This document shows positions 30,001 to 57,000 of a stretch of 64,000 bases of DNA, piece after piece (the stretch's first letter is position 1; each line of letters opens with the position of its first letter). Made by a program: the position numbers. The DNA is from Gemmatimonas sp. Lineage in GTDB: Bacteria; Gemmatimonadota; Gemmatimonadetes; Gemmatimonadales; Gemmatimonadaceae. The stretch lies in NCBI GenBank assembly GCA_031414535.1, contig JANNVQ010000001.1, positions 30,744-94,743 on the forward strand, in the 5' to 3' direction.

Positions 30001-33000
30001 TCAGTGGGAGACGTTCGACTGGGTCGCGCATGAAGATGGCGTGAGCACGTTGCGCTATCGCGTCGCCGCGCGACAGGCCGATTCCGTCATCGCCGCCTTC
30101 GCCGCTGCGCGCGCGCCCGAAGACTACCTCTTGGTCTACGGCGACCATGGCCATACGTGGACCGGTGAGCACAAGACTGGGTACGACATTCCGGCCTTCG
30201 TGTTGCTGCTAGGGCCCGACGTGACTGCCGGCGCCGATATCGGCGAGCTCGCCATCACCAACCTGCGGTACCTCGCCAGCCACGCACTCGGCATCACACT
30301 GCGGGGCGCACCCTACGATCTCGCGGCCATTCGGCGCGCTATTCCCATCCGCGGTGAGGCAACGGCTGGTGCGCTAACCGCGACGGACAACGCGACGGGT
30401 GCTGCGAATAACCAGCCGAGCGACAACGCTTCCACCGGACTGAGCGACCGCCCGATGGATTACGTGATTGCCCTCGTCGTCTTTCTTGCCGTTGCCGCCG
30501 TCGCTGCCCTCTGCCTCCGACTCCTCGCCACCCCGTCGTACGCAGTGAGCACGCTACTGCCACCGCTACTCTTGCTCGCCGCAGCGATGCTCCTCACGCC
30601 AAGCATCCCACCCGTGGATGCTTGGCTTCGCCCCGCGGGAGAACTTTGGGTGGTAGTGCTGTACGCCGTGGCGGTGCTAGCGAAGCTCGTGCTCTTCCTG
30701 CGCCGAGCCGACGGGCGTTGGCTCGCGGCAATCATCGCGACCGCCGCCGTGGCGATGTCCGAGTTCTGGAATGTGGTATTCGATCAGCCGCTGGTGATGA
30801 GCGCGTTAATTCTCGCAGCACTCATCGCGTCGTTCGTCCCACGCCAAACGGCGCACAGGGACCTCGCACGCATCGCGCTCCTACAGCTTCTTGTGTATGC
30901 GACGCTCCGAGTGCCACTCTACCTCTTCGCGTGGCTGGACCTCGTACTGTTGGCCGCGTTTCTGATCGCGAAGCATCCACAACTCGTCGCACGACCGGCG
31001 CTGCGCGATGCACTCATCGTACTCACGGCCTATTCGTGCACAATTGGGTGGGTGCCGGGCGGACTGGAGTGGGGCTTCCTCTACAAAGTGTTTCCGGCGC
31101 ACCTCGTGGAACTTGAAGTCCAGCGATTCCTTCCGTTGATTTTGGCCAAGATTCCGCTGGTCTTCGTGCTATTTCTCGTCGTGGCCCGTCGCAGGCCCGA
31201 CCGCGCCCTCGCGCAGGTCGCGATGTTGATGGTGGCGCTGAGGCTCGCCGCGGTATGGACCTTGAGCCTGGCCGGCGCGCCGACGGTGCAACTGTGGCCC
31301 CTCGCGGAGCACGGGGCTTACCTCGCCACCTTCGTCGTGGCCGTGGTCGCTTGGGGATGGCAGCTTCGCTCTGCCGCAAATCGTGTCGGTTAGGACGCCG
31401 TCACTTCCCTGGCGCGGGTTCGGCGAGGAACATGTAGTTGATGCGATTGTTGTACTGGGCCATGAACTCCGCCTCAGTGAGCGGCGACTTCTTGTCGAGC
31501 CAGTCCTGCATCAACCACAAACGCATGCCGAGTTCGTCCGTCATGAAAGACCAGACGTATTCGGGCTTGGTGCCGTAGAACTCCGCTGAGCCCTGACCAA
31601 ACTCGAATACGATGGTTGGCCGGCTGCGTCGAATAGTATGGACGCCGCCGCGCATGACCATGAACTCGGCGCCTTCCACATCAATCTTGATGAAATCGAT
31701 CTTGACGTCGGCGGGAATGGCATCGTCCATGCGGAGCACCTCAATGATCGTATCGCGCGTCTGGTCTTCGTTCACCGGATACTCGCGGCGTCTAAACCCG
31801 CTGCGCGCCGGCGCCTGAACCGCCAAGACGAAACTCATGGTCCCCGTTGAGTCTCCCAGTGCGCAATTGCAGATCTCGGCTTCAGGGAAGTCCTCTTCCA
31901 ATTGCTGAAAAAAGTTTGGCTGCGGCTCAAAGGCAAAGGTTCGGCCGCGAGGAGCAATCTTCATCAGGTCTTGCAGAATCTCGCCGATGTACGCGCCCAC
32001 GTCGATGCTGGCGCTGGAGTCGTTCATTACGCGGCGCGCCACCTCGATTGTCTGACGGTTGTAGCGCGAGTCCATGCCTTCCTCGCAACCCTGCGTCACC
32101 ACTAAGAGTCCAGCGATCAATGAGACGGAACGAAGATTCAGCATGAGTGATGAAGAAGTGTTTGTTGGGCCGCGCCTTCCACCTCAATCTTAATGGAATC
32201 CATCTTACCCATGCGCTCACCGTAGGGACGGGTCAGAGTCCTACACGCGTTCACCACCAGCGATTGAACGAAGGGCATCGGTAACGATCCAGTGCCCACG
32301 GTTCACGAAATGCCACGCCGCGCCGAGCAACTGCGTCAACTGGAACCGAGGACTCCGCGCGCGCGCGCGAAAGCGCGCGCTGATGCGCGGCCAGTCCTGA
32401 GGCCCGACGAGCGGCCGTGCGCTACGCCAGAAGTTGCTCGCTTCTGTGGATACGGCAGGTGCGCTGAACCGGCTCATCACCAACGGCCCGGCAAGTGCGC
32501 CGTACATGCGCTCCATCGCGACCTCAGGCTCTGCAGGGCCGGGCAACCATGATCCGTAGAACGGGACTCGACTGAGGGGCAAGAGTTCCCGCTCCCGGAG
32601 GTGGCGACGCGGTTCGTGTGCATCGAAGTGCGCACCATCTGCCGCTGCCGTGCGCGTAAGTAATCCCAGTTCCGTCAGCCCAGCGTGAGCGAAGGGAACG
32701 AGCGTCGTCGGAAACGCAAAGAAGTATCCATGCTGACGCCGGAACCTGAGGGTGAACCCGTGCGCGCGACAGACCGCAGCAAAGCGCGAATCAAGATCTT
32801 GCGTTGAAGCGTCGAGGAGGAAAGCGTCGGCGTCGTCATCCCAGGGCAGCAAGCCTTGCAGACGCAGCGCTCCGAGCAGCAGTCCTTTGTGCGCCACCGG
32901 GGTAAATCCGTGCTCCTCGAGCGCCGAGATGACGAAAAGCAGGCTATCGACGGCGTCGGTCGCGAACCACGACGGCATCATCAGGATGCGCGGTCGATTA

Positions 33001-54000: not shown

Positions 54001-57000
54001 GCCAATCGAGCTCGCCAACCGCCGTGAGAAGCCGTACAACCACCGCTTCCTCGTTGAAGACAGGCAGTTGCACCGTGACGCGCGGTAAGGTGACTGGAAG
54101 CGGCGGTCGCGTCGGTGCCGCGCGACGAAGAGTCCAGGCGAGCCAAATCAGCCACGTGTTGTAATAAATCCAGCAGTACAACAACACCCAGAAGCTGAGC
54201 ACCAAGCCCAGCACCGCAGCGGCAATTAGCGAGAAATTCAAGAGATCGTTCGGATGGTATGCTTTGTCGCGCTACGCCGTTCGGCGCCGCACCACGCGAT
54301 GGAACAGCGACAATTCCTGATCAAAGATGAACCGAAGCAACAAGCGCGACAACGAACGATGCGCGTGCAGGCCCTCGTACGCCTCCGGCGCGGCGGCGCG
54401 CAATTCAGGCAAGCGATGCCAAGGCACCGATGGAAAATCGTGATGCTCGTTGTGGTATCCCACATTGAGCGCCACGCGGTTCACGGGCCCGTAATAACTT
54501 GACGTTTCCTGCTCGTCGGTGGTAAGGAAATGCTCTTGAATCCAGCGCGCGCCAAGTGGGTGCAGGCCGATGGAGAAGAAGAACGACAGCACAAGATAGG
54601 CCATCGCGCTCGGGCCCATCATCCGCCACACCGCCACCGTGAAGCCGATTTGCACCACCCAGTTGACCGCGACCCAGCGATCCATCACGGCAATCTCGCG
54701 CGTGCGCGCCGTCCGGGCGATCTGGAAGAGCGGAAACAGCAGCAACCACAACGCCTTACCCACAAACCATTGCTGGATGAGGCGGGCTTCCCAGTAGCTC
54801 GGGAGGTCCGCATCAAGTTCGTGCACCCCTTGGTACGAGTGGTGCTTCAGGTGGTAACGGCGGAACGAAATCGCGCTCGGAAACAACTGTGGAAGGTTGG
54901 CGACGATGGCGGCCACCAGATTCATCCACCCGCGCCGGAACACAAGATTGTGCGCACACTCGTGTACCATCACGAACAAGGCATGGTCTGCAAAGGCCCC
55001 CACGAGATACGCGGCACCGAAAATCCACCACCACGAGGCATCGCGTAGCAGGTACGCGATGAACAGCTGCAGCGCGACCGTGCCCACGATGAGCAGGGCC
55101 GTGTACGGATTGCGCCCAATGAGCGCGCGCACCTCAGGATGCCGCTCCAAGATCTCTTGGGTGCGGCCCCGGTGTGGTTCGCGCTCGGTGGACCAAACGA
55201 AATCGGTGCGGGGCGGACGCAAGGGACTGTGGGGCAAAAGGGACAGAGTAACGCCAGCTAAAGGGGCCTATGAACCATAATTCGTGGAGCGGCCGCGCGT
55301 GTCATACGCCGCGATGAAACACTCTCCACCCGACCAGTGCGGGCTTAAGTACGACTCGAACCGCGTGGGCGGATACCGTTCGAAGAACTCTTCGTCAAAC
55401 GTATGGAGATGATAAGCCAGACGCGTCGCCACTGGTTCCTTCCACGGAGCAGCAATGACCACGAGCCGACGCGCCGTGCTCAAAAGCTTCTCGAGCAATT
55501 GGCCGGGTTCGTCGGTATGCTCGAGCGTGTGGGAGCAGACGACCACATCGAATTGCTCATCGAGGTCAAAAACGTCGCGCACACGATAGTTGACCCTCGG
55601 AAGCGTAATTGCAGCTCGAGGGTACCAATGAGAGTTGTTGTCGATTGCCGTGACGGTGAAGCGCAGCCGACTCCACGAGCGGGGATGGAACACGCGGGCG
55701 ATCAGGTCAGACCCTGCCGCAGTTCGCGCCCCAACATCGAGTAGCGTCAGCGTCTGCTGTTCCGGGCTCGCCAGCTCCTCCTGCAGAACCCGACAAAGGT
55801 CAACGGCAAAGCCGATTGACTGAGAATCATCTCGAATGTGTCGCTGGCCGCCCGGCGTGATGGCAACCGCGGCGTGCAGCGCCCGGGAAACCCGCGAGAC
55901 GAGACGAAAGAGCGACGTTTTCATGGTTGGACTGCGTTCCGGCAGGTGCGGGATAAGTGAAGTAGGCAGGTACCGGCTCTGCGCTCACCGTCAAATAGTG
56001 ACGCCGATCACGCGGAATCGTGCGCGGGGATGGGAAAGTAAGCAAATTTAGTGCACGCGTTCGGGCGCGCCGACCGCTTTCTCTTCAAGGAAGACACATG
56101 TCACCCAGTACCGTGCGGATCGCATTGCGCTCTGCCATCGTGGTCCCTCTCGGGCTGCTCGCCGCCTGCGAGATTCCATCAGATGCTCCAATCCTGCAGC
56201 AGACCTGGATCATCCCTTCCGATTCAATCACGGTCGGGGTGTCGGAGATTCTGCCGGCCAACGTCGCACTGAACGGCGGCGGTACAGCATTCGTGGTGAC
56301 GATTCCTGCACCAGCGGCCATCAACTCCACGCTCGGCGCGCTCTGCGCCCAGCCCGCCTGTCAGTCGAACGTCACGGTGGTCGCACCGGTCCCTGCCTTT
56401 ACGTCCTCGGGCGGCGCGCTCGGCACCACCGTCTCCTTCCCGGCCGGCGTCACTGCCGCAACGGTCTCGAGCGGTACGCTGAATCTGTCGGTCAACAACA
56501 ACCTCGGCTTCAATCCGCTGCGTCCCAATGGCCTCTCGGCGCCGTTTGGCTCGATTGCCATCACGATCACCAGCGGCAGCACCACCTCGACGACGACCTT
56601 CACCGGCGCCGCGAGCACGCTGCCGACCGGTGCGACGACGGTCCTCGCCGTCCCCGTGCCCACGGGCGCCTACACCGGCACCATCTCCGTATCGGCTGTT
56701 TTGAATGTGCCGGCCGGCGGCTCAGGAACGCTCAATAGCGCCAACGCACTCTCGATTGCCACCGCCGTCCAGAGCTTCACCGTCTCGCAGGCGACGGTTG
56801 TCGTGAACGGTGACGCTATTAGCACCGCCCCAACCGCCTTTGACCTCGAAGGTGTGGACTTCGGCGATCAGGTTGAGAGCGGCGCACTCCTGCTCGACGT
56901 CACAAACGGCTTAGCGGCCTCGGCGACGATGAGCGTCGCCATCGCGGCGCCGGCGCAGGGCGGTGCTGGTCCGGTGACCGTCACCAAGGCACTGGTCATC

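Follow-up and report, generated by a model that had tools for sequence, protein, structure and literature searches.

A putative ceramide gene cluster with a FAAL–ACP–synthase fusion and a phosphonate module in a Gemmatimonas genome

Related systems and the extent of the cluster

In the aasR-cerR-acpR-spt plus cerS locus of Caulobacter/Rhodobacteria (PMC11324152, PMC9386255), an acyl-AMP ligase, a carrier and a PLP synthase feed bCerS and CerR, likewise in the locus studied here; however, here the three starter activities are joined in one chain, the synthase belongs to another clade, and the LptFG pair and CPG genes are missing. The FAAL is 34% identical to AasR, compared with 45–48% to the FAAL domains of Nostoc and Sorangium. 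PKS-coupled Pseudomonas SgaAB (PMC12134224) and Sinorhizobium RkpA/RkpG-type systems share with our fusion the synthase clade and motifs (50–56% identity) and a tethered acyl donor, but here a FAAL, instead of an iterative PKS, supplies the acyl chain, and bCerS and CerR stand in place of the SgaC-type ketoreductase. The common Gemmatimonadota operon spt-cerS-cerR(-PAP2_3), known from genomes, also has bCerS and CerR, but its Spt is stand-alone, of the Bacteroidota type and 33–39% identical to the synthase domain of the fusion; SptCFB is the best family of all four such Spts scanned, at 505–534 bits, below the cut-off of 640. One genome of the phylum (G005) has a PKS-synthase-SDR-bCerS arrangement.

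The window analyzed here is a 64,000-nt stretch (positions 30,744–94,743, forward strand) of contig JANNVQ010000001.1, assembly GCA_031414535.1, from an uncultured Gemmatimonas sp. (Gemmatimonadota; Gemmatimonadaceae). Gene and domain re-annotation recovered, at the same positions, all ceramide cluster genes named in the genome-wide survey's note. The left border of the cluster lies at about 27950, not 31401, that is, ~3.4 kb further left, and the earlier gene set lacked a 2OG oxygenase, a membrane protein of the alkaline phosphatase fold, the swap between PAP2_3 and the CDP-alcohol transferase, and the acyl-CoA dehydrogenase (ACAD) insert. One read-derived contig spans 40000–57208 with zero differences, its run possibly being the assembly's own source. 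The gene order is repeated in a genome of the same genus (G294), where DES1 and FkbM are absent from the syntenic places and DES1 from the whole genome.

The starter fusion and the ceramide genes

42080..42709, plus: Scs7/FAH1-like di-iron fatty-acyl 2-hydroxylase, 209 aa, with His boxes
43821..44801, minus: CerR-like extended SDR, putative ceramide reductase (start read from the sequence)
44812..45972, minus: bCerS/YghO-like GNAT, putative bacterial ceramide synthase, single copy
45932..49249, minus: FAAL-ACP-alpha-oxoamine synthase fusion, 1105 aa (Pfam, NCBIfam, PDB and fold matches, tree)
54272..55237, minus: DES1/DEGS-like membrane desaturase or C4-hydroxylase, three His boxes
55268..55924, minus: class I SAM methyltransferase (domain annotation), syntenic in G294

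The three Pfam domains of the fusion were found again (AMP-binding 37–429, PP-binding 609–672, Aminotran_1_2 742–1085), and its ACP serine (Ser637) and PLP-site residues (key positions His834, Asp907, His910, Lys942, Arg1066) are conserved. The leading NCBIfam families and fold matches are FAALs. The earlier description of the third domain as Spt-like holds in part: the best PDB match of the C-terminal 402 aa is indeed Sphingobacterium Spt 3a2b (E 3.4e-67), followed by ALAS (1e-60) and KBL (1.7e-60), but the domain reaches no Spt cut-off in the NCBIfam-type family scan, and in a quick tree it clusters with PKS-associated RkpG/SgaB-type enzymes, apart from canonical Spts; it is not a canonical Spt. 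The Sinorhizobium locus with a fusion-like synthase is presumably of the RkpA/RkpG type. The clade also includes enzymes of Streptomyces, Bacillus and Planktothrix, with no ceramide genes listed near them. A 1649-aa relative, earlier read as two pieces, is a single four-domain protein (FAAL-acyl-CoA-dehydrogenase-ACP-synthase). The genome has no second Spt candidate, its sole other oxoamine synthase being KBL-like.

The bCerS homologue is 35.6 and 32.5% identical to the copies from the ceramide loci of Roseomonas and E. coli (YghO), respectively, and the CerR homologue, 28.7 and 27.7%; a genome search with E. coli CerR matched only the latter gene. At least one of the two is present in all 32 Gemmatimonadota fusion loci; across all 36 fusion loci, bCerS occurs in 28 and CerR in 30, both being absent from four loci outside Gemmatimonadota labels (5.8–13 kb of DNA scanned). 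bCerS was found in 38 out of 40 genomes picked because they carry the fusion or a synthase of its clade, and a bCerS-like gene in 187 of 300 other genomes of the phylum, mostly adjoining the stand-alone Bacteroidota-type Spt. A 2024 paper counts 40 phyla as potential sphingolipid producers. Carrying genes for sphingolipids thus does not set this genome apart.

The DES1-like protein matches Lipid_DES (E 1.8e-14) and FA_desaturase in Pfam and shares Lipid_DES and the His boxes with eukaryotic DES1/DEGS, but its nearest relatives are bacterial, and its sequence fits a desaturase and a C4-hydroxylase alike. A bacterial DES1-type gene is hardly a novelty, such proteins being widespread in Bacteroidota and Gemmatimonadota and automatically annotated as "sphingolipid delta-4 desaturase." The gene is optional (nine out of the 40 selected genomes). 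All 20 DES1-like positives fall within the 187 bCerS genomes and none within the 113 lacking bCerS (lists matched by eye; related genomes are non-independent), and in a quick tree five out of six located members of its clade adjoin bCerS, CerR or the fusion. Taken together, the enzyme probably acts on ceramide, with delta-4 desaturation inferred. The hydroxylase matches yeast Scs7 (E 6.9e-32), again as noted before, but, unlike Scs7/FA2H, consists of FA_hydroxylase alone, with no cytochrome b5 domain; it adjoins the fusion in two out of 36 other loci.

These data support a ceramide pathway in which the fusion replaces Spt. The FAAL domain would adenylate a free long-chain fatty acid and load it onto the tethered ACP, and the PLP domain would condense the ACP-bound acyl with L-serine to 3-ketosphinganine; the fusion would thus do the jobs of AasR, AcpR and Spt with parts of PKS origin. 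N-acylation by bCerS and reduction of the base by CerR would give dihydroceramide, subject to optional C4 desaturation or hydroxylation (DES1-like), 2-hydroxylation of the acyl chain (Scs7-like) and glycosylation by membrane GT2s. A ceramide-type product made on the tethered carrier is highly probable.

The phosphonate module and its likely acceptor

27950..28672, plus: 2OG-Fe(II) oxygenase, HxD motif WHYD, candidate aminoethylphosphonate 1-hydroxylase (Pfam 2OG-FeII_Oxy_3/HalD)
28629..29393, plus: TPR protein (Pfam TPR), adjoining the module in G294, L127, L132, G329 and L257
29390..31393, plus: membrane protein of the alkaline phosphatase superfamily, 667 aa, with an N-terminal anchor, a soluble domain and a C-terminus of several helices
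31401..32144, minus: FkbM-family methyltransferase, accessory (domain/profile annotation)
32241..33224, minus: LicD-like phosphotransferase (Pfam LicD, E 9e-7; true start probably within the ORF)
33044..34060, minus: CPT/EPT-like CDP-alcohol phosphotransferase, catalytic motif intact
34106..35710, plus: PEP mutase + PntC-type cytidylyltransferase fusion (TIGR02320, 256 bits, cut-off of 319.55 not reached)
35650..36831, plus: phosphonopyruvate decarboxylase (TIGR03297, 394.9 bits, above cut-off)
36828..37889, plus: 2-aminoethylphosphonate transaminase, AepZ/PhnW-like (TIGR03301, 278 bits, below cut-off)
37889..38608, plus: stand-alone PntC-type cytidylyltransferase (NTP_transf_3; ATG overlaps the transaminase stop)

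The aminoethylphosphonate (AEP) genes lie where the survey had placed them; the PEP mutase fusion and the transaminase are 40 and 39% identical to the Mycetohabitans enzymes, respectively. The 2OG oxygenase, outside the range considered before, has an upstream ribosome-binding site; its plasmid matches are 14 records, all from Burkholderiales (45–48%), and the one opened lies within a CDP-OH/PntC/Ppm/Ppd/AEPT cluster. The Burkholderiales "CDP-OH"/Group 1 phosphonolipid cluster (PMC8942020) shares with the window the Ppm-PntC fusion, Ppd, AEP transaminase, second PntC, a CDP-alcohol transferase and this oxygenase, which is an ortholog of the predicted AEP 1-hydroxylase. In contrast, the window's transferase is of the longer CPT/EPT-like type, similar in motif only, no LPG-synthase-domain gene is present in the window, and the module sits together with ceramide genes, LicD and the 667-aa enzyme. 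A 1-hydroxy-AEP phosphonosphingolipid, the product class predicted here, is known from Bacteriovorax stolpii (as cited in PMC8942020 and PMC8154272); PMC8942020 assigns its cluster to a more distant family.

The transferase is eukaryote-like, as claimed earlier: its only credible PDB matches are CHPT1/CEPT1 (E 7e-10 to 9e-10). It has 88 homologue clusters, nearly all named ones being Gemmatimonadota, and is a candidate phosphonolipid (ceramide- or diacylglycerol-AEP) synthase. CPT/EPT enzymes characterized so far use diacylglycerol. The LicD-like gene adjoins it in G294, G329, L259 and L260. Nine homologues of the 667-aa protein match Metalloenzyme (nine out of nine) and Phosphodiest (eight out of nine); in ESM Atlas unnamed Phosphodiest clusters head the list of its matches and GPI ethanolamine-phosphate transferases follow only at score 0.90, and no PIGO_PIGG or PigN matches occur in 46 scanned of 150 relatives. 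A role as lipid-to-glycan phosphonate transferase is possible.

Ppm, Ppd, the transaminase and two PntC domains would yield CMP-aminoethylphosphonate, probably 1-hydroxylated by the oxygenase, and the CPT/EPT-like enzyme would transfer the phosphonate group to a lipid hydroxyl; from there the 667-aa enzyme or LicD may pass it on to a glycan. Among the 36 fusion loci, 22 have an Aur1-like PAP2_3, four the CDP-alcohol transferase, and none both. Since the module takes the place that PAP2_3 has in sister clusters, the acceptor is more likely to be ceramide, and decoration of ceramide with (1-hydroxy)aminoethylphosphonate is modestly favored. The swap is not strict, as the G329 fusion locus carries PAP2_3 while the module of that genome lies elsewhere. 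Ppd/Ppm were not found in G303 and G316, both with module genes (genome completeness not given).

Alternatively, the (glycosyl)ceramide is made, but the phosphonate goes elsewhere, either into a glycerophosphonolipid or, via LicD and the 667-aa enzyme, onto LPS/capsule as AEP; both gene sets would then be clustered as envelope genes. It would agree with the transferase being nearest to diacylglycerol-using CHPT1/CEPT1, the retained lipid A genes, the location of module and fusion on different contigs in G327, G329 and G306, and the resemblance to the "CDP-OH" group, whose product is uncharacterized according to PMC8942020. Against it stand the mutual exclusion with PAP2_3 at the locus level and the recurrent position next to the fusion or CerR: all seven metagenome loci of the transferase adjoin phosphonate, 2OG or 667-aa genes, and two, a near-identical pair, adjoin CerR as well. 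Moreover, the transferase and the 667-aa protein occur in one out of 300 sampled phylum genomes, the fusion genome G294, and in none without the fusion. We consider this alternative rather unlikely; a sphingolipid is, on balance, the expected final carrier of the phosphonate.

Amino acid substrate, surface genes and novelty

38624–39601 and 39598–40380, minus: two GT2 glycosyltransferases (domain annotation)
40383..42083, plus: Wzi-like outer-membrane protein (PF14052)
42706..44037, minus: membrane GT2 (GT21/HpnB-like), candidate ceramide glycosyltransferase (domain/profile annotation)
49282..51057, minus: Omp85/BamA-like outer-membrane protein, weak (TIGR03303, E 4.6e-5 only)
51034..52872, plus: MsbA/HepA-like ABC exporter (start estimated; open frame from 50191)
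52841..54241, minus: multi-helix cellulose-synthase-like GT2 (domain/profile annotation)

The fusion might instead use alanine or glycine, giving a deoxy-sphingoid or other aminoketone from which bCerS and CerR would make an amide lipid, 1-deoxyceramide-like or of another kind. Indeed, BioF is the best-scoring profile (355 bits; SptCFB 291, cut-off 640), the scores for Spt, ALAS and KBL lie near one another, the active site differs from that of Sphingobacterium Spt, whose serine-contacting Asn52 aligns with Tyr748, and alanine can be a substrate of Spts (PMC11334938). However, PAP2_3, GT2 and the CDP-alcohol transferase require the C1 hydroxyl that only serine provides, and SgaB prefers serine, being a serine-specific Spt in vitro (PMC12134224); an sgaAB-like plasmid protein, not MYb115 SgaB itself, has the active-site motifs of the fusion. 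L-serine is the probable substrate, and the alanine/glycine reading is improbable.

Wzi-like genes recur across many fusion loci, and the Omp85/BamA-like gene recurs with the module; the ABC exporter has a 67% identical homologue within the G329 module, and the membrane GT2 lies near CerR in G294, L132, G302, L257 and L258. The exporter and two outer-membrane proteins would transport the product. Instead of being a free sphingolipid of the membrane, the product might anchor a capsule or surface glycan, the role suggested for RkpA/RkpG and WcbR/WcbT, but this is very improbable. Capsule-locus enzymes in the synthase clade fit it, as do the four GT2s, the ABC exporter and the Wzi-like and Omp85-like genes, and also the genes for polysaccharide export and rhamnose flanking sister loci, but bCerS and CerR belong to the core, and Wzx/Wzy or Kps genes were not found at window positions 21–60 kb. 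A ceramide anchor is compatible with the preferred reading.

That reading, in which an assembly-line starter feeds a ceramide pathway and a module supplies a phosphonate head group, appears the best overall, with some reservation: genes, domains, catalytic residues and co-occurrence are observed, while all substrates and products are predicted from them. The novelty lies in the fusion starter, the head-group module swap, the 2OG oxygenase at the extended left end and the four-domain relative, rather than in the presence of bCerS or DES1.

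The ceramide locus and its distribution

The open reading frames named in the genome-wide survey's note are present and carry the domains ascribed to them, according to an ORF and domain search of the window. The genes assigned there to the cluster (31401–55957) also hold, but its left border does not, as the cluster reaches further left to a 2OG oxygenase gene. The G+C content is 0.60–0.67 over the whole window, and positions 40000–57208 are matched without differences by one read-derived contig from a freshwater sediment metagenome run, from which the assembly may derive. In another genome of the same genus (G294), gene order is identical between the TPR gene and the final methyltransferase, apart from the missing FkbM and DES1 genes. 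The stated phylum, Gemmatimonadota, fits, since five housekeeping genes from Gemmatimonadota-labelled loci show 51–64% identity to the genome, compared to 34–48% for four controls (a rough test, the controls being mostly other genes). Calling ORFs from the first start produced two artefacts in the map: an ABC frame of 893 aa and an apparent overlap between the 2OG gene and a beta-lactamase frame.

To the left of the cluster, 21249–28342 encodes an amidase, two serine hydrolases of the beta-lactamase fold, an epimerase, and a phosphodiesterase, none of which reached the resistance-family cut-offs. After the cluster, on the opposite strand (56020–58500), lie an unannotated lipoprotein-like ORF of 392 aa and a DUF5723/PorV-like barrel, neither found at the syntenic place in G294.

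In the window, homologues of the bacterial ceramide synthase (bCerS) and ceramide reductase (CerR) adjoin an oxoamine synthase, and this locus context decides the identity of the ceramide core. The genome collection yielded at least 80 loci, at least 33 of them with a synthase at least 45% identical to that of the fusion; with three phylum genomes added, 36 fusion loci were listed. Among these, bCerS is present in 28 and CerR in 30, and one or both occur in all 32 Gemmatimonadota loci listed; neither was found in the four others listed (three from Planctomycetota; short contigs). Somewhere in the genome, bCerS is encoded in 38 out of 40 genomes that had been picked because they carry the fusion or a member of its clade.

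FAAL–ACP–synthase fusions are seen in loci L169, L173, L191, and L156 (Planctomycetota and one other genome), where ceramide genes were not found in the available contig DNA, and bCerS lies elsewhere in those genomes. In the fusion loci L127, L133, L139, and L145, the gene after bCerS encodes a ketoacyl synthase, and in three of the four a DES1 gene comes next on the other strand. Another family of the phylum has an SgaAB-like set with bCerS (L099:3529-14549, genome G005), in the order reducing PKS, same-clade synthase, SDR, bCerS, efflux protein, and GT21-like glycosyltransferase.

The survey's note held that sphingolipids would be new to the phylum; a first record of sphingolipid genes has to be given up, as bCerS-like genes occur in 187 out of 300 other phylum genomes (184 out of 297 if the unpublished G097, G057, and G182 are set aside), mostly beside a stand-alone synthase. 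They are found in 124 out of 125 genomes of one family and in ten out of 69 of the host's own. A stand-alone synthase lies within 1.5 kb of bCerS in 23 of the 29 best-scoring other loci (G097 included) and beside it in seven out of eight further genomes, and for all four stand-alone synthases scanned the best profile is the Bacteroidota Spt. The Aur1-like PAP2_3 gene also occurs in the stand-alone spt-cerS(-cerR) operons common in the phylum (L103, L104, L110, L111, L112, L050, L051, L061, and L069). A 2024 survey counted 40 phyla as potential sphingolipid producers, and the main text of that paper, as far as available, does not name Gemmatimonadota (PMC11334938).

The fused synthase and its relatives

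The N-terminal domain of the 1105-aa fusion (45932–49249, minus strand) scores 420 bits with the FadD32 profile, the top score among general acyl-CoA ligase profiles being 188.5, and the best fold matches of its predicted model (mean pLDDT 78.6) are FAALs. In both profile and fold this part is a fatty acyl-AMP ligase, with a cognate ACP, and it resembles FAALs more than it does acyl-CoA ligases. Ser637 of the ACP is invariant across 24 homologues, as are His834, Asp907, His910, Lys942, and Arg1066. Two phosphopantetheinyl-transferase genes are located elsewhere in the genome, and such a gene occurs in ten of the 36 related loci listed (one query).

Judging by domain content, the architecture forms a protein family: nearly all of the best 120 out of 3131 matches are about 1100 aa long with the same three domains, and those with names come mostly from Gemmatimonadota. 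When 300 genomes were drawn evenly from the phylum, the fusion was found in three, all within the host's own family (n = 69), being intact in G294, frameshifted in the assembly of G251, and longer in G077.

The longer form corrects a second claim of the survey's note, "two pieces of one 1649-aa frame": in G077, as well as in L153, a single protein contains FAAL, acyl-CoA dehydrogenase (ACAD), ACP, and synthase domains. A domain search places both proteins within ceramide loci.

Four-domain proteins within ceramide loci
L097:11606-16546, FAAL–ACAD–ACP–synthase protein
L153:8437-13626, FAAL–ACAD–ACP–synthase protein

No DES1 was found in the G077 (97% complete) and L153 genomes. By carbon counting, condensation of a 2-enoyl-ACP with serine would create the C4–C5 double bond directly, and the four-domain form of these two genomes may give rise to it in this way. 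ACAD as well as DES1 is missing from most genomes with the fusion. A Streptomyces match of 1607 aa was discarded as an ACAD form, its domains being KS–AT–ACP–synthase.

The synthase domain contains the residues expected of alpha-oxoamine synthases, namely, the PLP-stacking His834, the Asp907/His910 pair, the Schiff-base Lys942, and the C-terminal Arg1066. It is not a canonical bacterial Spt, as the scores with NF047599, NF047600, and NF047603 (276.5, 291.1, and 202.2) are all below the respective cut-offs (500, 640, and 670); the top-scoring profile is BioF. In a quick IQ-TREE phylogeny of 62 rows, the domain stands apart from the Spts of Roseomonas, E. coli, and Aureispira and from the stand-alone Gemmatimonadota Spts, its neighbours being PKS-associated synthases of the SgaB/RkpG type. 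The best plasmid matches (50–56%) likewise lie beside type I PKS genes in Pseudomonas, Sinorhizobium, and Microbulbifer. SgaB, the PKS partner in Pseudomonas, acts in vitro as an Spt with selectivity for serine (PMC12134224). The fusion shares clade and motifs with this type, the comparison being made with relatives and not with MYb115 SgaB itself; a plasmid protein with the sgaAB-type gene layout, again not MYb115 SgaB, has the site motifs of the fusion. In SgaB/RkpG-type loci an iterative PKS is adjacent, whereas the fusion has FAAL–ACP in its stead, and no KS domain was found among 30 window proteins scanned. Since some enzymes of the clade have no ceramide genes among their listed neighbours, membership does not fix the substrate. 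Compared to Sphingobacterium Spt, whose site residues include Ser81 and Asn52 (PMC10196870), the fusion retains Ser81, while a tyrosine occupies the Asn52 position. The only other oxoamine synthase found in the genome is KBL-like. We consider serine the probable amino-acid substrate.

Three further proteins, P0010 (Corallococcus, with an additional KS domain), P0011, and P0037, have two tandem synthase domains each; in the alignment, one copy lacks the catalytic Lys/His motifs, which recalls, by analogy, the active/inactive pair of eukaryotic SPT.

Tailoring and head-group genes

The DES1-like protein of the window has the Lipid_DES domain and three His boxes, and no PDB match was found for it. 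Bacterial DES1-like proteins with Lipid_DES are abundant in Chitinophagaceae and others. Within the phylum draw, DES1-like genes occur in 20 out of 300 genomes; all 20 carry bCerS, and DES1 is seen in none of the 113 genomes without it. None of the 20 genes was found near ceramide genes within up to 20 kb, several contigs ending early. In the clade of the window protein (support 97, FastTree), five of the six located members adjoin the fusion, bCerS, or CerR, and the sixth adjoins the head-group module. These neighbours favour ceramide as the substrate on which the enzyme may act, whether as a desaturase or as a C4-hydroxylase. DES1 is not a constant part of the cluster, being absent from the syntenic place in G294 and present in only nine of the 40 genomes selected for the fusion or its clade. 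An Scs7-like gene lies beside the fusion in two of 36 other loci listed. At L039:9552-11283 (genome G034), a DES1-like gene faces an Scs7-like one, the pair lying apart from the ceramide operon.

The phosphonate genes for Ppm-PntC, Ppd, the aminoethylphosphonate (AEP) transaminase, and a second PntC can, as far as their sequences tell, provide CMP-AEP. Together with the 2OG oxygenase, the same genes recur in the Burkholderiales CDP-OH (Group 1) cluster, for which 1-hydroxy-AEP lipids were predicted, the product being uncharacterised according to PMC8942020; such a lipid in B. stolpii is cited in PMC8942020 and PMC8154272. Plasmid matches of the 2OG oxygenase come from Burkholderiales only (14 records, 45–48%), and the one record inspected lies inside a CDP-OH phosphonolipid cluster. 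A halogenase reading of this enzyme was rejected because it has HxD instead of the HxG of BesD. A second copy just left of window position 1 (G000:C1:30300-30824) is 63% identical across 197 aligned positions and, being interrupted by stops in the frame that was read, is probably a broken paralogue.

The CDP-alcohol transferase (33044–34060, minus strand) matches eukaryotic CHPT1/CEPT1 and resembles the short Burkholderiales CDP-OH transferase in the motif only; the Burkholderiales LPG-synthase-domain query had no match in the genome. The family of the transferase is small (88 clusters), with no match among plasmid sequences, and, like the 667-aa enzyme of the module, it occurs in one of the 300 phylum genomes (G294). 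Among the 36 fusion loci listed, PAP2_3 is present in 22, the transferase in four, and both in none, and all seven metagenome loci of the transferase adjoin phosphonate, 2OG, or 667-aa genes. Against a tight link of module and fusion, G329 has PAP2_3 and phosphonate systems on separate contigs, and in G327 and G306 the module is on another contig than the fusion; the searches of G303 and G316 yielded neither Ppm nor Ppd.

The 667-aa protein combines an alkaline-phosphatase-fold domain with a membrane domain, resembling GPI ethanolamine-phosphate transferases (PIG-O/G/N) in fold family and layout; no PIGO_PIGG or PigN domain was detected in it or in 46 relatives scanned. Its single-sequence model (pLDDT 41) is too poor for use, and a structure search with its profile gave no match (E 0.67).

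Proposed pathway and its meaning

From the observed genes, domains, residues, and co-inheritance we infer the following reaction steps and products. A free fatty acid would be loaded as acyl-ACP, condensed to 3-ketosphinganine, and converted to ceramide; C4 and 2-hydroxy tailoring would be optional, followed by glycosylation, and (1-hydroxy)AEP would be put on the sphingolipid. That the product is of the ceramide type is very likely, and placement of (1-hydroxy)AEP on the sphingolipid, be it direct or by way of a glycan, is the somewhat favoured outcome. As lipid A genes are retained in the genome, the proposed lipid would add to LPS rather than replace it.

A broader combination seems doubtful as a whole: that the fusion works, in a single chain, as a self-loading serine palmitoyltransferase assembled from PKS parts, which displaced Spt in one Gemmatimonadota lineage; that the CPT/EPT-like transferase is the ceramide (1-hydroxy)AEP synthase, the missing gene of bacterial phosphonosphingolipids; and that the sphingosine C4–C5 double bond arises in two ways, by DES1 here or, in G077/L153, by an ACAD domain making 2-enoyl-ACP before condensation, independently of oxygen.

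Earlier work already covers this type of pathway, Spt activity of the PKS type, the phosphonate cassette, and the class of lipid; further sources on bacterial sphingolipids are PMC11324152, PMC9386255, PMC10411912, and bioRxiv 2024.02.06.579051. In the open-access literature, we found no description of a FAAL–ACP–synthase fusion in a ceramide locus or of its ACAD form, no characterised bacterial DES1, and no description of Gemmatimonadota sphingolipids, while the phylum may already stand in earlier surveys.

The locus offers clonable candidates for an Spt tethered to its carrier, with free fatty acid as the presumed starting material, for the formation of delta-4-unsaturated ceramide in bacteria, and for the enzyme joining AEP to ceramide; the lipid is reported in Bacteriovorax, and no synthase for it was found in the literature examined. 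Because the synthase seen here is not covered by the canonical Spt families, producers can escape genome surveys that rely on Spt. The presence of ceramide genes in about six in ten sampled genomes of a phylum common in soil and sediment bears on the origin of environmental ceramides.
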